A stretch of DNA of 43,909 nt, taken from IMG/VR virus record IMGVR_UViG_2778261176_000017; one strand, written 5' to 3'. Position numbers and translations under genes: made by a program. Shown here piece by piece: positions 1,929 through 18,304 of this stretch; the first letter of the stretch is position 1; each line of letters opens with the position of its first letter. The notes beneath the pieces are model-generated. The model was not told the origin of the DNA, ran no database searches, and was given only the letters and a program-made list of their open reading frames with translations. The stretch is from a virus (taxonomy: Duplodnaviria; Heunggongvirae; Uroviricota; Caudoviricetes).

Positions 1929-1984
1929 GATTTTTCTCATAAAAAATATTTCAAGTTGGCGGTGCATTACACCGCTAGGCTGAA

Positions 1985-2794
1985 TTATTCCTCTGAATTA
2001 TCGATTACACTGTATTCCCCGGTTAATACAGAGGAATCTGCAGGATCGATTGTCAGTGGTTCCTTTTCATCCATTGATACTGCACGCTGGATCTCAATTG
2101 ATACGGGCAGGTATTTGAACAGGCGACGAATAGCCGTTTTCTTTGCCATTTCTTCCCAGTGAGTTACCCACGGCCCGTTATTACCAGCTTTACTCTGGCT
2201 GCGCACCAGCTCAATCTGTTTGCGCGTCATAACTTCAAACTGAGTACCTCCGTCTTTCAGTCTTGCGACAGCATAGACGTGGGTAACCGGGGCATCTTCG
2301 TTTTCTCCTAGGCGGTGTATTAACTTTTCATCAAGGCCAAATTCGAAATTAAACTCGTCACCTTCACGGACAACACGGGCTGACAGGCTGGCGATTTGAC
2401 CTGAACGGCGAGCCAGATCAATCATGCCGCGATAGCCAATGATTAGCTGAACGTTTTTTTTACCGCTCTTTTCGTTTTTATTTCCAAAAGGCAGTAAATA
2501 TGCATGACCGAGGGCGCTACCGGGCTCAAGTCCGAGCTGTGAACACTGTACGATTGCACTGACAAAACTCATAGTGTCACAGTTTCCTAACGCCGGAACT
2601 TTACGAATTTCTGTGGTGGCGATACGGATCATACGTTCAGCCGTCATATGGCGTGGAAGAGCTGCTGCCAGTTGCTCTTTCATTGATGGCTGGTTAATAA
2701 AACTAATCACGTCGTTATTTTTAATTGCTGCTGGTGCACGGTTTCCCTGAGTTTTTTGCAGATCGGCTTTTGCGATTGGTGGTTGCTTAGTCAT
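1985..2794 (-). CDS. recT: Recombinase RecT, single-strand annealing protein (269 aa)
   Basis: Protein from [14 protein letters not shown] onward matches recalled Rac RecT. Start overlaps the recE stop by 8 nt. Confidence 0.9.
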
Positions 2795-5387
2795 TTGCAT
2801 ATTCCTTAGCCCAGCGGGGCAGTGATAACGTCTTAATAGCTGGCCATTCATCGGTATTGAGGCAGTCAGCCAGGGTTCGCAGATTGCGGTGATATTCCAG
2901 CTGACCTGCCTGTTTTGCTTCTTCGCCCATCATGAAAATTTCAACCGGATAACGTCCGCATTCAATAGTTGTGCTGGCAACCAGAAAAACGAAAGTTGGC
3001 TGCACTCCAAACTGTGCTTCATAACCGTCACTGTAGAATGCATCCTGAACGTGATAGCGGTAGTCGTAATAAGCGGTTTTGAATCGTTGAATATCCGCCG
3101 TAGTTTTCACGTCCATGATCCAGTGAAATTCAGGGATAATTTTGTCCGGACGGCACCGACACAAAATTCCTGTTTCAGGATCTTCCCAGTAAATTGATGA
3201 TTCAGCGTGTCCGGCGCTTTCAACAAGCCATTGCCCCAACGGCAAAGCCATAACGCTTTGATACATGAGTTCAATTTTCCGGCCTTCTTCCGCAGTGATA
3301 ACCGTTTTTCCTGTGCTTGCGCATTCCATCAGAAACGCTTTCTCTTCTTCTTTTCCGGCGTTTGTACGGCGGTTAAATTCAGGTGCTACGATAAAGCGGT
3401 TACTGAATTCTTCCGGTTCAAGTACCCGGCAGTGGAAAGCGGTTCCTAAATCGAGCGTTTTTGTCTTTGTAGTGTCCACGGGGGCATTTTTACGCCACAA
3501 ATACAGTGCCGGAGTATCAGCAATGTCATCGAGCTGAGACTTACTGACACCGGGACCCGCGTGGTAATTCTCATTCGAAATTCCGTAATAAATACCTGGC
3601 TCTATGTCTTCTACGATTACGGGATCTGCGACTTCGCCAGTTTCATCACTGCAATCGCGATGCGGATCGCTGCCAGCATTCTCATTGTGCGGATGTTCAG
3701 CGCCTTCCATTTCCTCCGGATCTTTTTCTTTAGCTTCAATCTGATTCTCTTCACCGAATGTTTCCTGGTATGTTGCGTCGCCCATCACCGCACCACAGTC
3801 AGGGCAGCTATCCCCGCCAGTCTGACCGCAGGCATTGCAGACTTTTTCCGGTTCCTGTTGCACTACTGGCTCAGGTTGATTCATATCCGGGCTGGTTTTT
3901 TCCGTTTCTGGCTGGTTCTGGTACACACAATCGCGAGTCTGGATCCCCTTTACCCATTTCGGATCGTTCGGGTCGCTAATTCCGTCAACAAATTCACCAC
4001 GTGATGCAGCAAGCAATTTATCGGCATCGACAGGATCTTTTGATGGAATGTTTTTCCGGGCTTCATGGAGTTCTGCCCGCAGTTCCTGATATTTCGCATC
4101 AACAGAATTTACCTGTGACTGAGCATCCAGCGGCTGCGTGTCCTGATGATGTTCAGTTGCGTCCGGTTCCATTGTTTCAGCCTCTCCCTGTTCAACTGCC
4201 GTTGTTCCAGATGGTTGCGGTTTTTCTTCATCATCCTGTTTTCCTTCTTCTGTTACTCGCTGCGGCATCGGGGCAGAGGAGCGACCGCAGGCAATATCCA
4301 CGATTTCCGGATCAGGGTTGGCATGATCGGTTTCAGTCAGTACTTTGTTCAGATATTCAGTGACGTGCGCGGGGATGACCTCGATCCCAATTGGTGCTTC
4401 TTTTACGGACGCAACCACGATGGCGCGGGAATAATCCAACCCGCCAGGCATGGTGATGAATTTGTCGCGGAAAACAGAAAAGGGCGGTTTATTTTCAGCG
4501 ATAATTTCCTCAATGCGTTTAGCGTGTGCCGGATGAAGGTTATAGATGTCCAGATCCATTGAACGGGCCAGTACGCCAGTGGCTACGTCGCGCGCCAGTG
4601 ACGTCAGATCGTGTACGAAACCTTCGCCGCGATCGGTGAGGTTTCCGCCGCCAGCATTAGCACCGGAAGCCGTGCGAGTGATGTGTGAAACACGATTACC
4701 CTTCATCCACTCTTTTGTCAGCAGTCCTCGATCGGTGTAGTCAGCGTTCAGGTATGCTTCGAAAAAAGCAGTTATCAGTCCCAGGTTTGAATTACCAGGA
4801 TTAGGGAAAACTTTGTCAGTGTCACGAACCAGTTTGTGGAGTTCGCGAATTTCCAGCGGGTCGAGCAGGCTGGTTTTGTGGGAAACAGCCAGGGCAGTAA
4901 CAGCCGGTAGTTCTTCAGCCCGAGCAATGTGTAATGCCTGGAGTCCGTCGCGTGAAACGTGCGTTACCGGTTTTTCGCTGCCGTGTTGAGCAAGCCAACG
5001 AATGGGCAGTTCCTGGCCAGAAATTGGGAGTAGCATATTCTCCTCAATCTCAGTCATGTCTTCGCCGTTGACGTTGGTATTGCCTTGATAGTGAGCGTTG
5101 TCTGGTGCTGCTCCCGGTTTTAGTTCCCATGTCATGGAGTCTTTGCTGAGTTGATAGCGTTCACTCCAGGTAAAATCGATCTCACCTTCAGCGGGCAGGT
5201 CATTAACGACAGGAAAATTCGTGGCAACAGCTTTAAAATAGCTGCTCAGTTTTTTACCTGACTTAACGATCAGGTAGTCCAGAGTGGCACAGGTCGATTC
5301 AAAATCGTTGCTTGCCCACAGGACGACGTCAGGTTCACCGGATGATTTTTTCGCTTTCCGTAACAGGAAGAGTGGTTTTGTGCTCAT
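2787..5387 (-). CDS. recE: Exodeoxyribonuclease VIII, RecE (866 aa, full length)
   Basis: Uninterrupted 866-aa ORF with acidic linker and C-terminal nuclease region; length and sequence match recalled Rac RecE. Confidence 0.9.
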
Positions 5388-5488
5388 TGTTTTTTAACCT
5401 CAACTCAGATTAAAATTCGTTTTGTTCAGTGAATGATCTTGCCGGATACACACTGTTCATAGCCTGCGCCATACGCAGGCTATTTCTT

Positions 5489-5764
5489 TCAGATTTCACC
5501 TTTTAATTTCATTGCAATTAGAGTTGCCAGAAATTCGGCTTTTTTTTCTGTGGGCAGATTCTTTCCGATATGCACCAGGCACATTTTTTTGACACCTTCA
5601 TCAAGTGTTTTTACGTTGCCTGATGGACCATCGATATCAACCACAGTGAATGGGGTTTCTTTATTTTCTGTTTTAATTACGTAGCCAATGCGCTTTCCTT
5701 CCAGATTCACCTCGTGAACAATGTCATCGGTAGTTACAACAGTGGCTTCATAATTGGTAATCAT
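5489..5764 (-). CDS. racC: Rac RacC-like protein (91 aa)
   Basis: ATG at 5764. Sequence MITNYEATVVTTDDIV recalled as RacC; position upstream of recE. Confidence 0.7.
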   Translation of the reverse strand: MITNYEATVVTTDDIVHEVNLEGKRIGYVIKTENKETPFTVVDIDGPSGNVKTLDEGVKKMCLVHIGKNLPTEKKAEFLATLIAMKLKGEI

Positions 5765-5838
5765 GTTTTTCTCCTTAATTAAGGTTGAGCGAATACCTGC
5801 CATTTCTGGCATAAATTCAGTTTCGAATAGTCAATTAA

Positions 5839-6009
5839 TTAAAGTTCATGTGCCATCTGGTCTTTTTCGGCACAAGCTTCACTGCAATATTTTCTCGGTT
5901 CGTCTTTTGATAAAATCCCGTGCATGAAGTGAAGCATTCTTTCAATAGCTTTGCTTTCTTCAACGTCTTTTTTGCAAAGGTGGTAAGCACATTTTATTTT
6001 CTTAGTCAT
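5839..6009 (-). CDS. ydaE: Small Cys-containing protein YdaE-like (56 aa; not in the supplied ORF track)
   Basis: Hand translation of the minus strand gives [60 protein letters not shown] sits 8 nt upstream of ATG 6009; stop TAA at 5841..5839. Lies between racC and kilR as in Rac. Confidence 0.55.
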   Translation of the reverse strand: MTKKIKCAYHLCKKDVEESKAIERMLHFMHGILSKDEPRKYCSEACAEKDQMAHEL

Positions 6010-6230
6010 CACCATGACTCCGCCTTTACAGGTAAACCATCACGACCGAGGAAGACTTTAATCATGCGGTCAGTAATGCATGTTTTTGTGGTCAGGTTAC
6101 GAATATATAGTTTTCGCTTTTTAATATTGTTTGCCGAGGCAATATATGTCCGGCCTTCATGAAGAACATAATCGCCAGGAGTCACACACTGACGTGGTAT
6201 TTCATCAGTTCCGAAGTGATGTGCAATCAT
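6009..6230 (-). CDS. kilR: Cell-division inhibitor KilR (73 aa)
   Basis: ATG at 6230. Sequence [35 protein letters not shown] recalled as Rac KilR. Confidence 0.8.
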
Positions 6231-6671
6231 AATTATCTCCATTTTTACAAATGAACTTTGTTGATGCGGTGCCTGGTGCCTCCAGGTGACTGCAACCAGT
6301 TAACAATTACAGTCGGCTTTCCCACCCAAACCAATAAGGACTAACATGACTTTTAACTGTGCCACGTGCGCTTAGCCGCATTCACCGCATCACAAAATTC
6401 ACTTTAAAAAGGGCGGACATCAGCCGAACTTCAAGAAAAAAACTGATGCCGCCAGGACTACACACAGCAATGTCGTTATTTACAACCGGAGGCGCACTCC
6501 CACCATTTAAATTTAACAGACAAGACCGACTCTTTATGGATATCGGAAATGCGCCTTCGTGTTGTGCCCGGTTTTATTTCACCACCTCCGGGCTTCGGTG
6601 GTCTCGGCTATACCCCTACAGCGAGAGCTTGTGTTAACATTTCAATACCCTTACAGTTGAGAGTTATTGAT

Positions 6672-9811: not shown

Positions 9812-10558
9812 ATGAAAAATATTGCGACAGGCGGCGTTCTAGAACGCATCCGCCGACTGACCCCGCCACATGTAACCGCCCCATTCAGAACGGTAGCGGA
9901 GTGGCGCGAGTGGCAACTTGCTGAAGGCCAGAAACGTAGCGAGGAGATCAACCGCCTGAATCGCCAGTTGCGGGTGGAAAAAATTCTGAATCGCTCAGGC
10001 ATCCAGCCGTTGCACCGTAAATGCTCGTTTGCGAATTACCAGGTGCAGAACGACGGTCAGCGATACGCGTTGAGCCAGGCGAAATCTATCGCTGATGAAC
10101 TGATGACCGGATGTACAAATTTTGCGTTCAGCGGAAAACCTGGTACCGGAAAAAACCATCTGGCGGCGGCTATCGGGAATCGTCTGCTGAAAGATGGCCA
10201 GACAGTGATTGTGGTTACCGTGGCTGATGTCATGAGTGCTCTACACGCCAGCTATGACGAAGGGCAATCAGGCGAAAAATTTTTGCGGGAACTGTGCGAA
10301 GTGGATCTGCTGGTTCTTGATGAAATTGGCATTCAGCGCGAGACAAAAAACGAGCAGGTGGTACTGCACCAGATTGTTGATCGCCGGACAGCGTCGATGC
10401 GCAGCGTGGGGATGCTGACAAACCTGAACTATGAGGCCATGAAAACATTGCTCGGCGAGCGGGTTATGGATCGCATGACCATGAACGGCGGGCGATGGGT
10501 GAATTTTAACTGGGAGAGCTGGCGTCCGAATGTCGTCCAGCCAGGAACTGCGAAGTAA
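9812..10558 (+). CDS. ydaV: DnaC/IstB-like replicative helicase loader (248 aa)
   Basis: Walker [16 protein letters not shown] and Walker B-like LLVLDEIG; position after the initiator gene. Confidence 0.85.
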
Positions 10559-10580
10559 TTTTTATCGGGAGGAAATTTTA

Positions 10581-11342
10581 ATGGAGACTGTTTTTGACGC
10601 ACTGAAAGCAATGGGAAAAGCCACATCCATAGAACTTGCTGCGCGACTTGATATCAGTCGTGAAGAAGTGCTGAACGAACTATGGGAACTGAAAAAAGCT
10701 GGTTTCGTTGATAAAAGCGCGTACACCTGGCGTGTGGCTGATAACAACGTTCAGCAGGAACAGCCAATGCAGGCAGAACTGCCGGAAGAAACCACCACGG
10801 CAACAGTAGCGAAAATCTCAGAGTGCGATTTAACCGCGACGATTGAACAACGTGGACCACAAACGGCGGATGAACTGGCTACGCTGTTCGGTACCACATC
10901 CCGCAAAGTTGCTTCAACGCTGGCTATGGCAATCAGCAAAGGACGCCTGATTCGCGTAAATCAGAACGGTAAATTTCGTTACTGCATACCGGGCAATAAT
11001 TTACCAGCAGAGCCGAAAGCTGCATCGGTAACGGAAACTGATTTTAAAGCCTTTCCTCAGCCAGCAGGTTTTGCGTTGCCGTTACAGAAAGATGCAACAC
11101 AGGAAGATATTAAAACAGAAACTGTGGCGGACATTGTGCAGTCGCTGCCATCGTTTACCGAAACGTGGGTGGATGACCTGATTTTACCATCGCTGCACAT
11201 GGCAAACCGTGAGCTGCGCCGGGCGAAAAATCATGTCCAGAAGTGTGAGCGTGTCTGCGCCGCGCTGCGGGAGCTGAACAAGTACCGGGATATTGTTCGA
11301 CAGATTGTCGACTCCTCCAGTCGTATTGTGTCGGAAAAGTGA
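10581..11342 (+). CDS. Hypothetical protein (253 aa), possibly YdaW-like, predicted winged-helix domains
   Basis: GGGAGG RBS at 10567..10572 before ATG 10581. Charged helical N-terminus resembling a wHTH; no catalytic motif recognised. Confidence 0.55.
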
Positions 11343-11357
11343 TTGCCGGAGGCGCTT

Positions 11358-11780
11358 ATGGCAAAAGTTTTTACACAGGAAGAGCGTGAAAAAATTAAGG
11401 AGCAGGTTGTTGAGCTGGTACGCCAGAGTGGGCGCGAGACGTTAAGGCAACTGGAGGCCAAGACAGGTGCGACAAGATATCTGATGAGCATTCTTGCCAG
11501 AGAGTTGGTTGCCAGTGGCGATGTATACAACTCTGGCTATGGGTTATTTCCCTCTGAACAGGCTCGTAAGGACTGGAAAAACGCCCGCAAAAAACTATCC
11601 AGGGCAAAGGTGAAAAAAACGGTTGTGGTTGATCCTGACCTTATCTGGTCATTACCAGACGGAGAAATACGCCGCTATGACAGGCGTATGAACATAATCT
11701 GTCGCGAGTGCCGGAAGAGCGAAGTTATGCAGCGTGTGCTGGCATTCTATCAGGGGCATTTTCAGGGGGCGGCGCAGTGA
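11358..11780 (+). CDS. Hypothetical protein (140 aa)
   Basis: GGAGG RBS 5 nt before ATG 11358; follows directly after the preceding gene. No recognisable motif. Confidence 0.5.
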   Translation: MAKVFTQEEREKIKEQVVELVRQSGRETLRQLEAKTGATRYLMSILARELVASGDVYNSGYGLFPSEQARKDWKNARKKLSRAKVKKTVVVDPDLIWSLPDGEIRRYDRRMNIICRECRKSEVMQRVLAFYQGHFQGAAQ

Positions 11781-12108
11781 GCAGGATTGGCTACCAGGAG
11801 TTGACCGCGCCAATGCCTTCCTTGCCGAAGTTCGGACGTGGGCGTTTAACGAGCTTTGCACGGCGTTTGACAGGCACGGAATGTTCGCTGGCCTTGATGG
11901 CAACAACGCCGTGACACATAAGCCACATAAAAGAAGTGATAAATGCGATGCTGCATTGCTCGGAACAACTTCATAAAGGAAGCGTCTGATGAGGGCAATA
12001 AAAGCTCATACAGAATTGCTATCTATTAGGACACAGGATATCAGATGAGATTACATTCCACCAATAACCAAGAAAATTACATAAGACAATAAAAATAGAT
12101 GATAAAGA

Positions 12109-12137
12109 TTGTAAAAAGCCTATCAATTTCATATGAT
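12109..12137 (+). promoter_or_regulatory. Candidate sigma70 promoter for the methyltransferase operon
   Basis: -35 TTGTAA (12109..12114), 17-nt spacer, -10 TATGAT (12132..12137), about 45 nt upstream of ATG 12183 in an AT-rich intergenic region. Confidence 0.35.
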
Positions 12138-12182
12138 TCTCGATTAGATTCATAGTATACATGATGGAATGGAACGCATAAA

Positions 12183-13223
12183 ATGAAAGCAATTGATCTT
12201 TTTTGTGGCGCTGGTGGTTTGACAGTTGGTCTAAAAATGGCTGGCTTTGATGTCATATCAGCAATCGAAAAAGAAGCTATTGTATCTGAAACCTATAGAA
12301 TCAACCATCCGGATGTTAACTTAATAAATGGGGATATAAAAAATATATCACCAGATGAATTAATGAAACAATTAAAAATTCAGCAAGGTGAACTGGATTT
12401 GTTGGCAGGTTGTCCACCATGTCAAGGATTTTCTTCGTTAAGAACAAAAAATAAAACAGTAGCTGTCTTTGATGAGAGAAATGAACTTATTTTTAATTTT
12501 TTAGATTTTGTTAAAGTCTTTTTTCCAAAAGTTGTAATGGTTGAAAATGTACCAGCTTTGGCATTTGACGAACGAATAAACATGTTTACTTCGGAGCTTA
12601 AGAAATTGGGTTATCATATCGATGATAATTCAGTTTTAATTGAAGATGCTAGTAAATTTGGTGTGCCACAAAGACGTAAGCGCATGGTACTACTTGCTTC
12701 GCGATACGGAGAGCTTACTCGTGCTCAAAAAAATAGTAATTTAATAACTGTGCGCGATGCAATAGGCCATTTGGCTCGACCTGAAAATAGCAATGATCCG
12801 CTGCACAATATATTAGAAAGAAGAACTGAGAAGGTTAAAAAAATTATAAGTCTTATTCCTAAGGATGGGGGAAGCCGCTCTCAACTTCCTTACGAGTATT
12901 GGCTGCCATGTCATAAACGATATCCAAATGGTTTTCGCGATGTTTACGGTCGTATGAGGTGGGATGATGTAGCTCCAACTATTACGAGTGGATGTACTAA
13001 TCCTTCAAAAGGTCGTTTTTTACATCCTGAACAAGATAGAGCAATAACTCTTCGAGAGGCTGCATTATTACAAACTTTTCCGAGTGATTACTATTTTCCT
13101 ATTCAATTTGGTAAAGACAAGGCTGCTTTGATGATAGGGAATGCATTGCCCCCTGAATTCATTAAGCGTCATGCTGAACTTATCAAAGAACATATAACTA
13201 AAAACGAGGCGGATTATGGATAA
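12183..13223 (+). CDS. DNA (cytosine-5)-methyltransferase (346 aa)
   Basis: Conserved m5C-MTase motifs read directly: DLFCGAGG (SAM binding), PPCQGFS (catalytic Cys), ENV, QRRKR, GNALP. Visibly AT-rich coding sequence. Confidence 0.9.
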   Translation: MKAIDLFCGAGGLTVGLKMAGFDVISAIEKEAIVSETYRINHPDVNLINGDIKNISPDELMKQLKIQQGELDLLAGCPPCQGFSSLRTKNKTVAVFDERNELIFNFLDFVKVFFPKVVMVENVPALAFDERINMFTSELKKLGYHIDDNSVLIEDASKFGVPQRRKRMVLLASRYGELTRAQKNSNLITVRDAIGHLARPENSNDPLHNILERRTEKVKKIISLIPKDGGSRSQLPYEYWLPCHKRYPNGFRDVYGRMRWDDVAPTITSGCTNPSKGRFLHPEQDRAITLREAALLQTFPSDYYFPIQFGKDKAALMIGNALPPEFIKRHAELIKEHITKNEADYG

Positions 13224-15198
13224 TAAACTATTTCTAAATTTTCATGGTAGGATAATTGATCATTTAGGTATTCAAATGTATCAAAGTCCAACAGCAGCAA
13301 TAGCTGAAATGGTTTCTAATGCTTGGGACGCGGATGCAACCGAAGTTAATATTACACTACCCACGCATGAAAATAGAACTATTGTTATAAAAGACAATGG
13401 TATTGGAATGACATTTGAAGAATGTCAAAAGAAATTTCTTACGGTTGGTTTTGATAAAAGGAAAGATAATCCTGTAGCGAAGTCGAAATTATTCAATCGA
13501 GACTTAATGGGAAGAAAAGGTATCGGAAAGTTTGCTGGTTTTGGTATTGCTGAGATTATAGAAATTTGTACTACTAGCCAAGAAACAGGTGAAAAAACTA
13601 GTTTTACTTTGGATATAAATAAGATTAGATCGTCAGATGACTACGTTAAAACTGAAAGCATGGCTATTGATGTGACCTTCCGCACAGGCCCTTCAGAATT
13701 AGAAAAAGAAAATCATGGAACAACAGTAACACTTAAGTCATTGAAAATAAACAGATTATTAAATGAGTCTTCTTTTGCTACATCTATGGCGAGAAGGTTT
13801 GCGATCAATTCTGGCGGCGATGAATTTTTAGTTCGTATTAATAATACCCCCATGCCAGTCGAAAATTTTCTTGCCACTGCAGAATATAGTTTTCCAAAAG
13901 ATTATACTGTAGATGAAAAACCTGATTCTCTTACGGAAATTGACAGTTTGGGGTATGGAAAAGAAATCGTTGATGGTTATGAGATAAAATGGAGAGTGTT
14001 TTTCTTAAAAGAAACAATCAAGGATGATGAGTTGCAAGGTATCTCGATTTACGCTCACAAAAAATTAGCACAAAGGCCGTTTATGTTTAACTTGACTGGA
14101 GGGTTGCCAAGTCAAAATGGTCCTGAATATATGACAGGGGCTGTAATTGCTGATTATTTGGATGAGTTTAATGATGATGTGATTTCTACTGAACGACAAA
14201 GATTGAATTGGAGTAGTCACCACCTTGCTAAATTAGAAGAGTGGGGACAGAAACGTGTTCGCGAATTATTAAAAATCTGGAAAGATCGGCGGGCAGATGA
14301 AAAAACCAAACTGATTGAAAGTAAAATTGATGATTTCAGAAGTAGGCTAGATAAACTAGGTGTAGAAAAAAAAACGGTTATAATGGCTTTGAAACGAATT
14401 GCATCAATCCAACAAATCGGTGCAGAGCAATTTAGGCATATAGGCAACTCTATCCTCACTGCATGGGAGGGAGGGCGTCTAAAAGAGCTTATAAGAAGCG
14501 TTGCTTCTGTTCCTGATATGGATGAAACGAAATTGCTTGAGATATTGATCGAAGCAAATACAATTCAGGCTTTACACACAGCAGAATCAGTTAAAGCTAA
14601 GCTTGATACTATAAGTGGTCTTGAGACTAGAATACGCACTAAAGAATTAGAAAATGCTGTTCGAGACTATATTGCGAAGAATCCTTGGCTGATAGCTCCA
14701 AAATGGGAGACTTATGCTATTGAGAAAAATGTCCAGCATATCGCTAGAGAAGCAGCAAAAGAATCAGACATTGAACACGATCCAAGCTTTAAAGGAAGGG
14801 TTGACTTAGTTCTTTCAAGTGGTGAACATTTGCTTGTACTTGAATTCATGAGGCCAGGGCTGAAAATAGATAAAGATCACATCAATCGCTTTGAGGAGTA
14901 TGTTAATACTTTCAGAGTTTATTTAGACTCTGCAACAGGAAGTCCATTCAAGCGAGTTTCCGGTTATCTAGTTGCTGATGATTTTTTAAAGAGAAATGCA
15001 ACGTTAAATATGAAACTGAAAACATTGAGAGAACAAGAAATGTATACATTAACTTGGGATGACCTTCTGTCTGATGCAAAGCGTCAATGGCGTGAGTTTT
15101 TAGAACACTTGTCTTCTCGTGCTCCCGAAGATCAGCGTATGAAAGAATTGTTATCTACAACTCCTGAGAAAGTGATAGATACCTCTGAAATTACTTAA
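13216..15198 (+). CDS. GHKL (Bergerat-fold) ATPase-domain protein, 660 aa, predicted ATP-dependent restriction/defence component
   Basis: N-terminal motifs EMVSNAWDA (N-box), DNGIGM (G1), GRKGIGKFAGFG (G2). ATG 13216 overlaps the MTase stop by 8 nt; GAGG RBS. C-terminal segment RVDLVLSSGEHLLVLEF is a possible, unverified nuclease core. Confidence 0.75.
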   Translation: MDNKLFLNFHGRIIDHLGIQMYQSPTAAIAEMVSNAWDADATEVNITLPTHENRTIVIKDNGIGMTFEECQKKFLTVGFDKRKDNPVAKSKLFNRDLMGRKGIGKFAGFGIAEIIEICTTSQETGEKTSFTLDINKIRSSDDYVKTESMAIDVTFRTGPSELEKENHGTTVTLKSLKINRLLNESSFATSMARRFAINSGGDEFLVRINNTPMPVENFLATAEYSFPKDYTVDEKPDSLTEIDSLGYGKEIVDGYEIKWRVFFLKETIKDDELQGISIYAHKKLAQRPFMFNLTGGLPSQNGPEYMTGAVIADYLDEFNDDVISTERQRLNWSSHHLAKLEEWGQKRVRELLKIWKDRRADEKTKLIESKIDDFRSRLDKLGVEKKTVIMALKRIASIQQIGAEQFRHIGNSILTAWEGGRLKELIRSVASVPDMDETKLLEILIEANTIQALHTAESVKAKLDTISGLETRIRTKELENAVRDYIAKNPWLIAPKWETYAIEKNVQHIAREAAKESDIEHDPSFKGRVDLVLSSGEHLLVLEFMRPGLKIDKDHINRFEEYVNTFRVYLDSATGSPFKRVSGYLVADDFLKRNATLNMKLKTLREQEMYTLTWDDLLSDAKRQWREFLEHLSSRAPEDQRMKELLSTTPEKVIDTSEIT

Positions 15199-15266
15199 TA
15201 GCTGTTCATCGTACTAAAAAGCTGCAGTAGTGCTGTGGACTCCCCAGCAATGGGCGAATAGAAAAG

Positions 15267-15322
15267 GCAGGCATAGTGTTTTGTGATTGCAACCAATTCA
15301 ATGAGATCATCTCTATGCCTGC
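15267..15322. repeat. Perfect 10-bp inverted repeat with 36-nt spacer
   Basis: GCAGGCATAG (15267..15276) and CTATGCCTGC (15313..15322), about 70 nt downstream of the ATPase stop. No U-tract follows directly. Confidence 0.5.
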
Positions 15323-16085
15323 TCGCCAAGTGTGACAGAATTTTTACCGCAATGCGTTAGCACCGCTTGATACTCCCCTACAAAATGCTTTGCCGGATGC
15401 CACTATTGTTCTCATCAATAGCAATCGCTAGTGCTGGCAAGTATCGGATGTTATTTAGCCAGTACAGCCCATACAAAAAATCAAATCAAATGCGTTTACC
15501 AATTACTTGGAAATGAATTTCTTTACCACAGTATCCTACTAATTTTCAGAAATATTACTGCTATACAGACGAATTAGTTTTCTATTTATGGCATGATTTT
15601 TATACTCATCATACTGATTTGAAACGACATTTGATCTCCTCGCAGAGATGGATAGTTTCTTCGGAGAATCAGCAAAATGCAGAGTTAAAACAGATTTTTA
15701 TTAAAATTATTGCCGGAATATTAAAATCAAAAAGTAAGAGTAATCAGCGTCACCAATGAGGACATTTCAGACCGTTTGGTCCCAGCACATAATTAAAATT
15801 CGCACGGTACTGGGTTCCGTTTCTAATCACCTGGTAAGTGCTTAGAATATAGTGATAGTAAATTAGGTATTATATGCGAGCACTTTCAGCCCTTATGCAT
15901 TTTGCCTGCTGAATCTGAAGAGCAAAAAACAATCACTTATTTGATTATATGCATAACAATAAATAAAAGTCATTGTGCCTGCGCATAAAACAAACAAATA
16001 TACGGCGTGAAATAAATATTTTTAAGGTTAATATTTTTGTCTCTATGTGGATATAACCTCTTGTACTTATAAAGTTGGAGGCATC

Positions 16086-16298
16086 GTGGAAAAAATAAAG
16101 AAACTATTTAGTAGCAAATACGCAGTCATACGTCGTGATGATCTGTCAGTTATAGTCGAAATGGATTACTTCCCTGAAAACCAAAAATCAATGATGTATC
16201 GTAATGGGCGAAAGGCAATTTTTTTACCGATGAGGTTAAGTGACATTATGGGAAATGATAAACTGCTGGATGAATTGCGAGTCAGAGCATCCTGTTAG
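16086..16298 (+). CDS. Hypothetical small protein (70 aa, GTG start)
   Basis: GGAGG RBS (16076..16080) 5 nt before GTG 16086; first ORF after a roughly 890-bp AT-rich non-coding stretch. Confidence 0.4.
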   Translation: MEKIKKLFSSKYAVIRRDDLSVIVEMDYFPENQKSMMYRNGRKAIFLPMRLSDIMGNDKLLDELRVRASC

Positions 16299-16369
16299 TA
16301 TTGGTATTAATTCTGGTATACTGCACAACGGGCTGAACACCCATTCTACTGCGCCAGCGGAGAACTACG

Positions 16370-16969
16370 ATGGCGCATATACAACTGGTCAAACAAACTT
16401 CTTCTGGTTTACTTCTCCCGGCGACGCCGGAGAGTTGCGATTTTCTGCATCAAATCAAAATAGGCGAGTGGATACACGCAGACTTTAAGCGTGTGCGTAA
16501 CTACGCATTCCACAAGCGTTTTTTCAAACTCCTGCAACTGGGATTCGATTACTGGACTCCGGTCGGTGGGGCGATCACGCCTCGCGAACGAGAACTGCTG
16601 TCTGGTTTCGTGGATTACCTGTGCGAATCAGTTGGTCGGGAACACACGCCAGCCCTGAGTGATGCCGCAGAGCAATATCTGAATACAGTTGCGACACGCA
16701 GAACTCGGGATACGGCATTGCTAAAGTCGTTTGAGGCTTTTCGCGAGTGGGTAACCATTCAGGCTGGATTTTACACCGAACATTTTTATCCGGACGGTAG
16801 CCATGGGCGTCGGGCGAAATCCATCGCTTTTGCGAATATGGACGAAACCGAGTTTCAGCAGGTTTATAAATCTGTTCTGAATGTGCTGTGGAACTGGATT
16901 CTGTTCCGTAAATTTTCCTCTCCGGAACAAGTCGAAAATGTGGCCGCGCAGCTGCTGGAGTTTGCGTAA
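16370..16969 (+). CDS. nin-region protein (199 aa), YbcN/DUF1367-like by recall
   Basis: Position upstream of Q, with stop/start overlap to the next gene; family assignment is from memory only. Confidence 0.55.
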   Translation: MAHIQLVKQTSSGLLLPATPESCDFLHQIKIGEWIHADFKRVRNYAFHKRFFKLLQLGFDYWTPVGGAITPRERELLSGFVDYLCESVGREHTPALSDAAEQYLNTVATRRTRDTALLKSFEAFREWVTIQAGFYTEHFYPDGSHGRRAKSIAFANMDETEFQQVYKSVLNVLWNWILFRKFSSPEQVENVAAQLLEFA

Positions 16970-17259
16970 TGGTGGATTTACGTAAAGCGGCGCGGGGGCA
17001 GATGTGCACCGTCAGAATTCCTGGCTACTGCAATCACGATCCGGAAACGTCTGTGCTGGCGCATTACCGACTGGCGGGAACGTGCGGAATAGCGACAAAA
17101 CCACACGATATGCAGGCGGCGATTGCCTGTAGCTCATGCCACGATCTAATCGACGGGCGGGTAAAAACCAGCGATTACACCAAAGAAGAATTACGCCTGA
17201 TGCATGGAGAAGGTGTTTTTCGCACACAAGAAATCTGGAGAAAGGAGGGATATTTGTGA
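16969..17259 (+). CDS. nin-region protein (96 aa), YbcO/DUF1364-like, Cys/His-rich
   Basis: ATG overlaps the upstream stop (TAATG). Cys/His pattern C..C...H...C..C..H; family assignment from memory. Confidence 0.55.
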   Translation: MVDLRKAARGQMCTVRIPGYCNHDPETSVLAHYRLAGTCGIATKPHDMQAAIACSSCHDLIDGRVKTSDYTKEELRLMHGEGVFRTQEIWRKEGYL

Positions 17260-17798
17260 TTTACCCAACGAATACAGGAAAAAGCGGAGAACACCTTCGT
17301 CTCGCCACGCTGGAAAGTGTCTGGATTCAGGGCAAACTGCGTATGTGGGGGCGCTGGTCGTATATTGGCGGTGGCAGGTCAGGAAATATGTTCAATCAGT
17401 TGTTGGCATCCAAAAAATTGACGAAAACAGCCATCAATGAAGCCCTGCGCAGAATGAAAAAAGCGGGAATAGAGAAAGCTGAGCTGGAAGCGTTTTTGAG
17501 AGAGATGATCAACGGCAAGCAAAAGAGCTGGCTGGCGCATTGTACTGATGCAGAGGCGTTATGTATTGATCGGGTCATAAGTGAGGTGCTGGCAGAGCAT
17601 CCAGGATTGATTAGCGTCCTTCGGCAACGGTATGAGGGGCGGGGGATGACCAAACGCAAAATGGCTGAATTGCTAAATGATGCACACCCAGAGTGGTGTT
17701 TTAGCACATGCGAAAAGCGAATTGCTAATTGGTTGGCCGTTGCTGAGTATGCGCTATACATTCCCATGCGAGAATCATTCGCTCAAAAAACGGCTTGA
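17256..17798 (+). CDS. Late-gene antiterminator Q-like protein (180 aa, GTG start)
   Basis: AGGAGG (17244..17249) 6 nt before GTG 17256, which overlaps the upstream stop (GTGA). C-terminal region recalled as similar to Q/YdfT-type antiterminators. Sits upstream of the tRNAs and lysis genes. Confidence 0.65.
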   Translation: MIYPTNTGKSGEHLRLATLESVWIQGKLRMWGRWSYIGGGRSGNMFNQLLASKKLTKTAINEALRRMKKAGIEKAELEAFLREMINGKQKSWLAHCTDAEALCIDRVISEVLAEHPGLISVLRQRYEGRGMTKRKMAELLNDAHPEWCFSTCEKRIANWLAVAEYALYIPMRESFAQKTA

Positions 17799-17883
17799 TT
17801 TTTTACGCGTAAACTGCTTCAATTTTGCTACGCTTCGCAAAGCTGTATCGCGAGGCGAATCAAGCGCAATTAAACTTTAATAG

Positions 17884-17910
17884 AACCCGCCATCAAGCGG
17901 GTTTTGTTGT
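17884..17910 (+). terminator. Hairpin with U-rich tail downstream of Q
   Basis: Stem AACCCGC (17884..17890) / GCGGGTT (17897..17903), loop CATCAA, followed by TTGTTGTT. Confidence 0.4.
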
Positions 17911-18150
17911 TATTATGGTGTGATATAAGAAACGACATTTAATATTGCCTTCAAAATAAATTTGTTTATATATTGTCGCTTATATTTTAAGTGAAGGTGA
18001 AATGTTCACATAAAATAAAAATACATAAATAAATTTACATAGCTTGACGCAAAGTGTTGTTGCGATTGGAATATTAAATCGTATCATCGAAAACGGTTCT
18101 GAGGGGGAACTCTTCTTTGCTCGGTGATATCGCTCCCCTGAAGAACCAAT

Positions 18151-18226
<76 letters not shown>

Positions 18227-18229
18227 TAT

Positions 18230-18304
<75 letters not shown>

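Follow-up and report, generated by a model that had tools for sequence, protein, structure and literature searches.

We found that the AT-rich island that separates the replication genes from the nin/Q region in this window (the whole stretch of DNA analysed, 43,909 nucleotides) is probably defence cargo gained by horizontal transfer. It sits in a variable slot of a lambdoid, Rac-like Escherichia coli prophage, and its core is probably a self-contained Type II-like restriction-modification (R-M) cassette. The cassette has two open reading frames on the + strand, 12183-13223 and 13216-15198, that overlap by 8 nt.

A methyltransferase and a candidate restriction endonuclease

The first gene (12183..13223, + strand) encodes a C5-cytosine DNA methyltransferase (MTase) of 346 aa, as expected of a Type II (m5C) R-M system. 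It matched PF00145 (E=1.3e-55) and the PADLOC MTase_II model (E=1.2e-80), and scored 155.8 bits against TIGR00675 (dcm; cut-off 100.65). The motifs FCGAGG, PPCQ, ENV, QRR and GN are all visible.

The second gene (13216..15198, + strand), whose start overlaps the MTase stop, encodes a protein of 660 aa that NCBI annotates just as 'ATP-binding protein'. Based on its sequence, we consider this GHKL gene a candidate for the restriction endonuclease (REase) partner of the MTase. The original prediction did not pick out this partnership. The protein consists of a GHKL ATPase and middle domain (residues 1-~330), a helical linker (~335-475), and a PD-(D/E)xK nuclease domain (~476-648). It matched HATPase_c_3 (E=1e-23) and the PADLOC REase_II model (E=1.2e-52). 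The AF2 model (pLDDT 79) resembled the N-terminal and middle domains of Hsp90/TRAP1 over 390-440 columns in a Foldseek search. Residues invariant in the alignment include E31, N35, D38, D60, G62, G64 and the G99-G110 loop of the GHKL domain and K283 of the middle domain.

The gene is thus a neighbour of the MTase gene, in the same orientation, and homologous to known REases. The protein matched NCBIfam NF050001, the BbrUII/HgiDII restriction enzymes, with E=2.5e-89, and residues 13-634 aligned to positions 9-647 of the 659 in the profile. At 300.6 bits, the match falls short of the equivalog cut-off of 550 bits; homologues from Pantoea and Yersinia phage P37 scored 304 and 329 bits, and the protein of phage PhiR44_1, a bona fide member, scored 751 bits. 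The PhiR44_1 protein was 26% identical to the window protein over residues 13-628 (BLASTP). Because this protein, with its high score on NF050001, carries the annotation 'ParaMORC3', we take 'paraMORC3' and BbrUII/HgiDII to name one family.

The window enzyme appears to belong to a discrete, always MTase-linked sister clade of these enzymes. It is collinear with the BbrUII/HgiDII enzymes over its full length, has its GHKL domain at the N-terminus, as does R.HgiDII (PMC2441816), and is encoded alongside a C5-MTase. The two groups differ in the nuclease domain: the motifs are D...E-x-K-R-P and QxxxY in bona fide members but D...E-F-M-R-P and HxxRxxxY in the clade described here. They may also differ in specificity, which here need not be GTCGAC. 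The window has 3 copies of this HgiDII site and would be expected to have 4.5, which is not a depletion, and the site-avoidance analysis was uninformative.

The paraMORC3 proteins were defined by GHKL, S5 and restriction endonuclease (RE) folds, a nuclease motif E-D-ExK, and R-M neighbourhoods, and a DNA-looping accessory role was put forward for them (Iyer, Abhiman and Aravind 2008, PMC2292703). The window protein resembles them in its intact GHKL ATP-binding motifs, a middle domain that is S5-like by fold similarity alone, and its C-terminal nuclease of RE fold. The linkage to DNA cytosine methylase and Vsr genes, the commonness in proteobacteria and the lateral mobility are also alike. In contrast, the E-D-ExK motif is incomplete here, as the Lys is absent, and the GHKL protein is the operon's sole nuclease candidate rather than an accessory factor.

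Linkage to the methyltransferase

In each of the nine contexts examined, a C5-MTase gene precedes the REase gene in the same orientation, and in most of them the two overlap or abut. For all five distant members of the clade, the gene directly upstream was a co-oriented PF00145 gene, and two of the five also had a Vsr gene. That is, the neighbourhoods show the DNA methylase or Vsr link that is typical of paraMORC3.

It is possible, but unlikely, that the GHKL-nuclease is instead an immune nuclease like Shedu type I-D, or a stand-alone paraMORC3 nuclease. Its trigger would then be a feature of infection (free ends of DNA, intermediates of replication or a signal that depends on ATP) and not a particular sequence left unmethylated, and the MTase would serve as an accessory marker of self or as an independent methylase that protects the phage. 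VcSduA of Shedu type I-D, one of the closest known systems, combines GHKL with a DUF4263 nuclease (PMC12137116; bioRxiv 10.1101/2023.08.10.552793). It acts alone, with no MTase, and depends on its ExK lysine, whereas the window protein is always linked to an MTase. No SduA model was among the four PADLOC families matched at E<=0.01. Pfam SduA_C gave 14.3 bits against a cut-off of 27, and only 7 of 19 members matched it at E<=5. The top profile match was a named restriction-enzyme family (NF050001), and the consistent upstream C5-MTase, together with Vsr in two cases, is the classical signature of m5C R-M systems. These results argue for an R-M system.

An altered nuclease active site

The C-terminal nuclease domain (residues 476-648; 14641..15159, + strand) contains E503, D530, E543, Met545 and H555/R558/Y562. 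E503, D530, E543 and Y562 are invariant in the clade. Met545 stands where the canonical ExK motif has Lys (EFMRP), and this Lys is missing in all clade members examined, which have Met or, rarely, Val, Leu or Thr. In place of the QxxxY of RecB-type nucleases there is a clade-specific helix, HxxRxxxY, in which H555 is conserved in 100% and R558 in 96%. We infer that the Arg or His of this helix supplies the missing positive charge.

The clade lacks an ExK Lys that is essential in the related GHKL-Shedu protein VcSduA, where K557A abolishes defence (PMC12137116), so the nuclease could be inactive or work differently. At its extreme, this would mean a dead nuclease domain, with the GHKL protein acting as a non-cutting, methylation-sensitive clamp or silencer and the MTase, which would guard phage DNA from host restriction, as the useful product. 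The replacement of Lys throughout the clade and the loss of defence in VcSduA K557A fit this idea. Orphan methylases are also commonly carried by phages. Nevertheless, we consider a dead nuclease improbable. The four other residues stay invariant, and the loss of Lys is accompanied across the clade by the gain of H555 and R558 on the adjacent helix, a pattern expected of a rearranged active site and not of decay. The strict linkage to an MTase implies that unmodified DNA would be harmed by the protein's activity. In addition, the sole genome with a broken MTase gene, E. coli O177:H21, also has a truncated nuclease domain. In this strain the MTase gene is frameshifted (in an A-run, and possibly by an assembly error) and the REase gene is truncated by ISVsa5; that is, both halves are damaged.

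The cassette in other temperate phages

The two genes, together with 82 nt upstream of them, form a 3.06 kb cassette (12101..15164, + strand) that appears, from sequence comparisons, to move as a unit between temperate phages. It was found with the same end-points and 81% nucleotide identity in a Klebsiella pneumoniae prophage (L008, 4886-7949) and in a Pantoea agglomerans prophage (L006, 5001-8060). Both are lambdoid; the cassette lies after the replication genes in Klebsiella and after Q in Pantoea. Yersinia phage P37, which is P2-like, has beside its replication gene a Dcm gene and, after it, an REase homologue with 67% identity. PhiR44_1, also P2-like, has an MTase/REase pair of the canonical clade between portal and gpA.

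The conserved upstream region includes two candidate promoters (12109..12184, + strand) just upstream of the MTase start. Each has 9/12 matches to a sigma-70-like promoter, although such matches were not enriched relative to shuffled sequence.

Composition and limits of the island

The drop in base composition described in the original prediction is real and large: GC is 0.365 in the island and 0.51 in the flanks. By segment, GC was 0.51 (9812-11780), 0.36 (both island genes), 0.38 (15199-15901) and 0.50 (16370-16969). GC at third codon positions was 0.23 for the MTase gene and 0.27 for the GHKL gene, in contrast to 0.48-0.60 for flanking genes.

The limits first proposed, 11781 and 16085, were each off by about 200 bp, and we place the island at about 11976 to about 15901. 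On the left, GC is still 0.52 at 11781-11975, and the fall starts at ~11976. Homology to other Rac-like prophages stops at ~11881-11975 and restarts at 15902, from where the sequence is 92-93% identical to L002 and L003. The search for direct repeats that had been proposed as a check found none at the island edges.

The left edge of the shared backbone is a decayed small ORF (11777..11976, + strand) downstream of DUF977/LygF. It aligns with a 66-aa ORF of L002 and L003, compared with which it has lost 1 nt and carries an insertion of 10 nt, and homology to the relatives ends at ~11975. Between it and the cassette is an island-specific AT-rich leader (11976..12100); GC is 0.32 over the whole leader through 12182. 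The segment 11976..12100 is not part of the cassette common to Klebsiella and Pantoea. Sequence from 11965 to 12110 was confined to the same 19 E. coli genomes that carry the island and had no other match in the genome collection.

On the right, AT-richness runs on beyond 16085 (GC 0.30 at 15902-16085 and 0.37 at 16086-16298). It spans island and backbone, and the right-hand edge has no compositional mark. Alignment to other strains shows that 15902-16298 is AT-rich prophage backbone, outside the island. It comprises an intergenic region shared with Rac-like prophages (15902..16085), whose counterpart in the relatives directly follows the hok terminator, and a conserved 70-aa ORF (16086..16298, + strand) with a GTG start after GGAGG. 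L001, L002 and L003 list the ORF as a hypothetical protein, and it had no Pfam, NCBIfam or PADLOC match. It sits where phage Rac 442/2 has 'rem', and the two sequences were not alike on inspection.

An insertion sequence remnant in the ORF-free tail

As predicted, the MTase/GHKL operon is followed by a region (15199-16085) with no complete ORF of at least 60 aa; the longest are 44-49 aa. A decayed gene, a small toxin and a non-coding RNA had been suggested for this tail. The first suggestion was borne out. The tail appears to be explained by a decayed, internally deleted IS4-family insertion sequence (IS) at ~15216..15893 (+ strand), with 68-77% nucleotide identity to annotated IS4-family transposase genes. 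Transposase residues 1-154 were recovered at 15315-15739 in three frames with in-frame stops (tblastn, E=1e-25), and the C-terminus left a weak trace at 15801-15861 (tblastn, E=0.51). Aligning the ends with those of the intact element in L005 gave a clear left inverted repeat at ~15230-15250 and a weak right-repeat-like match at ~15873-15893 (alignment score 47). No target-site duplication or direct repeats of the remnant were found. Thus, what can still be recognised of an IS4-family element and its transposase gene is the left end and the first 154 codons. Relative to an intact element, there is an internal deletion of ~600 bp, the frame is broken in three places, and the right end is barely recognisable.

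It is very improbable that the tail has a function as the gene of a small toxin or of a regulatory RNA. The equivalent position in relatives does have hok/sok, and the tail includes a few promoter-like matches. However, there was no Rfam match in 11000-17000 at E<=1, whereas sok scored 120 bits in L002 and L003, and we detected neither a HokD-like peptide (tblastn) nor DNA similarity to hok/sok (blastn). The transposase remnant accounts for 15216-15792, and the predicted fold of 15902-16085 was no better than that of shuffled sequences (z=+0.54). The right end of the IS appears to abut the backbone exactly where the relatives have hok/sok, which suggests that hok/sok was probably lost through insertion of the IS and a deletion next to it, perhaps in that order.

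A variable slot for prophage cargo

Among complete E. coli genomes (5,426), the island was carried by 19, and the flank sequences matched in 4,512. This rarity, together with the breakpoints at ~11881-11975 and 15902, supports the earlier view that the DNA was horizontally acquired. Its placement between the replication module and the nin/Q region also held: replication genes (ydaV-like, DUF1627, DUF977/LygF) are on the left and DUF1367, DUF1364 and Q-like genes are on the right. Comparison to the Rac prophage of K-12 was uninformative because the match to the query stops after its first 531 bases and K-12 is without the rest of the region.

Other strains have different cargo in the same slot, including RmrT/RmrA and sce7726 plus beta (PD-Lambda-2_C-like). 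AbiH, NACHT, Sll1717 ATPase and KilA-N genes were also found there. In those strains hok/sok comes after the alternative cargo; here it is missing. That is, the flanks are conserved and the cargo is compositionally distinct and differs by genome, as for 'morons'. The hotspots of P2 and P4 prophages (PMC9122126) similarly have conserved flanks and exchangeable low-GC defence or toxin-antitoxin cargo; the corresponding flanks here are DUF977/LygF on one side and hok/sok, the 70-aa ORF and DUF1367 on the other. In contrast to those hotspots, this slot belongs to lambdoid prophages of the Rac type, where it separates the replication genes from nin/Q, and it was not described as a named hotspot in the literature searched.

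We view the island as a whole as ordinary prophage defence cargo. The C5-MTase would mark host and prophage DNA at some sequence, and translation of the REase would be coupled to that of the MTase through the 8-nt overlap. The GHKL ATPase and middle domain would form a dimeric clamp like those of MutL and Hsp90, tied to the PD-(D/E)xK nuclease by the long helical linker, and the GHKL module, by binding or hydrolysing ATP, may gate or position the nuclease. Methylation would shield self DNA, and unmethylated incoming DNA, for example that of a superinfecting phage, would be cut.

Extent and edges of the AT-rich island

We found that GC content in this Rac-like E. coli prophage drops from ~0.52 to 0.32-0.40 between ~11.9 kb and ~16.3 kb (sliding-window profile). 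Measured by segment, GC was 0.51 at 9812-11780 and 0.52 at 11781-11975, and then 0.32 at 11976-12182, 0.36 in both the C5-cytosine methyltransferase (MTase) gene and the GHKL gene, 0.38 at 15199-15901, 0.30 at 15902-16085, and 0.37 in the 70-aa ORF at 16086-16298. It was 0.50 in the DUF1367 gene. GC3 was 0.23 and 0.27 for the two island genes compared to 0.48-0.60 for flanking genes. The two genes encode 346 aa (12183-13223) and 660 aa (13216-15198) and overlap by 8 nt; the longest ORF within 15199-16085 is 49 aa or less. These results (sliding-window GC, segment GC, GC3, and an ORF scan) confirmed the composition drop and ORF layout of the original prediction. Its limits for the island, 11781-16085, did not hold. 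That is, the drop begins at ~11976 and AT-richness runs past 16085.

The full 7 kb stretch from 10500 to 17500 was present in 19 of 5,426 complete E. coli genomes, and matches to the flanks were present in 4,512 of the 5,426. In pairwise BLAST, homology to two Rac-like relatives that have other cargo (L002 and L003) stopped at 11881 or 11972 and restarted at 15902. Alignment of the left junction placed the loss of similarity at ~11975. At the right junction similarity began at ~15895-15902, a point that in the relatives is directly 3' of the hok terminator. Because similarity to the relatives restarts there, 15902-16298 is shared backbone despite its AT-richness. The island proper is ~11976-15901 (3.9 kb).

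Repeats flanking the island, which had been suggested as something to look for, were not found: a search for direct and inverted repeats at the edges gave only short matches at the level expected by chance. The idea of a composite transposon was tried and rejected; the left leader (11965-12110), searched for elsewhere, was present in the same 19 genomes only.

Two small backbone ORFs lie near the junctions. The 66-aa ORF found after DUF977/LygF in other Rac-like prophages is a frameshifted pseudogene at 11777-11976 (+ strand), in which 1 nt is missing and 10 nt are inserted. The conserved 70-aa ORF (16086-16298, + strand) has a GTG start after GGAGG and sits where phage Rac 442/2 has 'rem'. 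It had no match in Pfam, NCBIfam, or PADLOC, and on inspection its sequence looks unrelated to 'rem'.

An IS4-family remnant and the missing hok/sok

The tail without an ORF (15199-16085) had been proposed to hold a decayed gene, a small toxin, or a non-coding RNA. A decayed gene was found, that of an IS4-family transposase. Sequences from 15216 to 15792 were 68-77% identical (nt) to annotated IS4-family transposase genes; such matches occurred in 637 E. coli records as well as on many plasmids. When aligned to an intact copy (L005), the tail gave a same-strand match that took in the element's left end plus ~514 nt at the start of its transposase gene. By tblastn, transposase residues 1-154 of 399 were found at 15315-15739, in three frames and with in-frame stops. 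Two weak signals lie further right: a trace of the last ~20 transposase codons at 15801-15861 (tblastn, E=0.51) and, at ~15873-15893, a resemblance to the right inverted repeat. These alignments suggest that the element has an internal deletion of ~600 bp and that its right end abuts the backbone junction.

The toxin and the RNA were not supported; no sok, Hok, or Rfam family was found in the tail. An Rfam scan of 11000-17000 at E<=1 gave just two sub-threshold chance matches, both outside the tail. Rfam, tblastn, and blastn detected no hok/sok in the window and detected the positive control in the relatives. The predicted RNA fold of 15902-16085 was no better than that of shuffled sequences (z=+0.54).

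In the relatives, a complete hok/sok (hokD) lies between the cargo and the 70-aa ORF (4275-4600 in L002 and 3931-4256 in L003). It is entirely absent from the window and from the other 18 carrier genomes, with the breakpoint at 15895-15902. We infer the order of events: in the simplest history, an IS would have inserted beside the cassette and hok/sok would then have been lost through a deletion. As a secondary reading, the prophage may have come to rely on the R-M cassette in place of hok/sok as its addiction module.

A cargo slot in Rac-like prophages

The relatives have a common gene order: DUF977/LygF, variable genes, hokD/sok, the small ORF, DUF1367, DUF1364, and a Q-like DUF1133 gene. 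The variable genes were RmrT/RmrA in L003 and sce7726 + beta, PD-Lambda-2_C-like, in L002. In a spread sample of other genomes they encoded an AbiH-family protein, a NACHT protein, a Sll1717-type ATPase, and a KilA-N protein. Thus, the slot between DUF977/LygF and DUF1367 is a cargo hotspot of Rac-like prophages. Pinning down this swap-prone slot, with R-M, RmrTA, sce7726 + beta, AbiH, or NACHT in different strains, is modestly useful. The alignment to K-12 Rac that the original prediction called for was made and was uninformative: only bases 1-531 of the query matched. K-12 Rac is not a useful comparator because the rest of the region is absent there.

Just downstream of the Q-like DUF1133 gene are genes for tRNA-Thr (anticodon TGT) and tRNA-Gly (anticodon TCC) at 18151-18304 (+ strand). 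A second dip in GC (0.37 at 17800-18200) is close by.

The two genes and their family

The MTase matched PF00145 (E=1.3e-55), scored above the cut-off of TIGR00675, and has complete catalytic motifs. The product of the second gene (here called the REase) carries a GHKL ATPase domain at its N-terminus (HATPase_c_3, E=1e-23) and matched two PADLOC 'REase_II' models (1.2e-52 and 5.3e-33). It also matched the NCBIfam model NF050001, 'BbrUII/HgiDII family restriction enzyme' (E=2.5e-89, 300.6 bits), over its full length (residues 13-634 aligned to profile positions 9-647 of 659). The score of 300.6 bits is below the 550-bit equivalog cut-off of NF050001 and the Lys of the ExK motif is missing; therefore, the REase is not an equivalog of BbrUII/HgiDII.

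R.HgiDII has been described with a GHKL domain at its N-terminus and a C-terminal domain with an unassigned fold (PMC2441816). Iyer et al. gave the name paraMORC3 to proteins with GHKL and S5 domains and a C-terminal RE-fold nuclease with E-D-ExK, which occur in R-M neighborhoods that also encode cytosine methylases and Vsr (PMC2292703). In the P2-like phage PhiR44_1, one gene product was deposited as 'ParaMORC3' and that of the adjacent gene as 'Dcm protein'. This 'ParaMORC3' scored 751 bits on NF050001 and is 26% identical to the window protein over residues 13-628; paraMORC3 and BbrUII/HgiDII are thus two names for a single lineage, which is modestly useful to know.

The window enzyme differs from paraMORC3 in failing the motif definition (no ExK Lys) and from Shedu in being below profile thresholds. 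The description that fits it best is a sister clade of BbrUII/HgiDII, with a predicted role in restriction. As prophage cargo, the cassette resembles Type II m5C R-M systems and is well known in kind. RM type II is the call to be expected from PADLOC-type tools, while the NCBI label for the enzyme is 'ATP-binding protein' only. It is modestly useful to recognize that proteins with only this label are restriction-enzyme homologues.

Two papers conflict on M.BbrUII, as an m5C enzyme or as an m6A (N6-adenine) enzyme (PMC5867850 vs PMC5829577). The NCBIfam family name is thus no reliable guide to methylation type or specificity, and we did not use BbrUII to infer specificity. GTCGAC, the HgiDII site, was not depleted in the window, and avoidance of palindromes and of GTCGAC gave no pointer to specificity.

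An AlphaFold2 model of the REase (37 homologues) had a mean pLDDT of 79. In Foldseek, the N-terminal ~390-440 residues of the whole model aligned with the N-terminal and middle domains of Hsp90/TRAP1. This list was dominated by Hsp90 and had nothing on the C-terminus, so the C-terminal domain was modelled alone. Structural matches also included Cap4, NucC, Kpn2I, and others. Sequence profiles alone gave SduA_C and HSDR_N_2 at sub-threshold levels only. Among PDB sequences, a profile of the C-terminal domain had no significant match, and the full-length REase matched only GHKL N-terminal domains (MutL, Hsp90). The architecture thus runs from a GHKL ATPase and middle domain through a long helical linker to an RE-fold nuclease.

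A Met clade with a non-canonical nuclease motif

The sequence 'RIDIAF...VIIEMKRP' of a bona fide family member aligns with 'RVDLVL...LVLEFMRP' of the window protein; that is, the Lys of ExK is replaced by Met. Among 120 close homologues, the motif region was present in 119 (the other is a 532-aa partial sequence that lacks it). The residue was Met in all but one (Leu) and Lys in none. An exhaustive search against representatives at 50% identity gave 5,739 matches at E<=1e-3 and 536 at E<=1e-30, and a word-index search gave 1,787 proteins at E<=1e-5; the counts of 536 and 1,787 both include relatives with the canonical Lys. Among the representatives, those at least about 38% identical to the query had E-[FL]-[MVT]-x-P and those about 36% identical or less had E-x-K-R-P.

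We compared residues in 27 Met-clade and 44 Lys-clade sequences. E503, R528, D530, E543, and Y562 were kept in both. The Met clade (n=27) had H555 in 100% and R558 in 96% of sequences, whereas the Lys clade had E and Q at these positions; this Q belongs to the RecB-type QxxxY. Based on this alignment we infer that positive charge may have left the strand for the helix after it in the Met clade. Our tentative proposal, somewhat short of probable, is that these GHKL-nuclease R-M enzymes form a large clade, so far uncharacterised, in which the role of the Lys has shifted to the next helix, changing QxxxY to HxxRxxxY.

Mobility of the cassette and linkage to a methyltransferase

A segment from 12101/12102 to 15161/15164 is common to lambdoid prophages of Klebsiella (L008) and Pantoea (L006), with 81% nt identity. 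The cassette is after a lambda-P-like replication gene in Klebsiella and between Q and the lysis genes in Pantoea. Judging from these alignments, the M-R cassette is mobile. The 82 nt conserved upstream of the MTase start contain two promoter-like matches (candidates only). A promoter and terminator scan found fewer promoter-like sites than in shuffled sequences and, downstream of the REase, nothing convincing as a terminator.

Dcm + GHKL-nuclease pairs are also present in P2-like phages, at 1968-5013 in Yersinia phage P37 (L009) and 3468-6516 in Escherichia phage PhiR44_1 (L010). The PhiR44_1 pair, of the canonical Lys type with convergent genes, occupies the classical old/tin slot, flanked by the portal gene and gpA. 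The P37 pair, of the Met-clade type and in M-then-R order, adjoins the replication gene.

Five distant Met-clade members (50-59% identity; from Paraburkholderia, a Halomonas relative, and metagenomes) all had a PF00145 methylase gene immediately upstream on the same strand (5/5). With E. coli, Klebsiella, Pantoea, and Yersinia phage P37 added, the linkage was found in 9/9 contexts. Several of the distant contexts adjoin HsdR, McrBC, or MmeI-like genes, and Vsr was also present in two of the five. These Vsr genes, beside the M-R pair, are at 6038-6439 in Paraburkholderia (L011) and 6205-6660 in the Halomonas relative (L012). The E. coli window cassette has no Vsr, so T:G mismatches from deamination of 5mC at the new motif would be without dedicated repair.

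In two carrier strains, further IS elements have inserted within the island. Both genes are damaged in one of them, E. coli O177:H21 (L016, 1836-6051). Its MTase gene has lost 1 nt at codon 52, upstream of the PCQ motif and within an A-run where an assembly error is possible, and ISVsa5 cuts the REase off at residue 623. Damage to both together is as expected if the R gene alone would be harmful. In the other, E. coli LA3 (L017, 5601-6569), IS903B is inside the old IS4 remnant, and both MTase and REase are intact.

The methylase linkage and the joint damage in O177:H21 favor a working R-M system over a dead nuclease, as which the missing ExK Lys could be read, or a stand-alone Shedu-like sensor; PADLOC gave no Shedu model among the four matches of the REase.

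Meaning of the island

Our results indicate that the island is mostly explained and ordinary: a routine case of a prophage hotspot that carries defense genes and the scar of an IS. The AT-rich stretch does not call for a new kind of element. The residual interest is in the definition of the Rac-prophage cargo slot and in the uncharacterised Met clade. This discrete, MTase-linked clade with a non-canonical nuclease motif is testable for control of DNA cleavage by a GHKL ATPase. If the proposal for the clade is true, Type II enzymes (HgiDII), 'paraMORC3', and GHKL-Shedu would be joined in a single lineage, and the compact cassette of two genes would offer a tractable way to study how a MutL/MORC-like ATP clamp gates a restriction nuclease.
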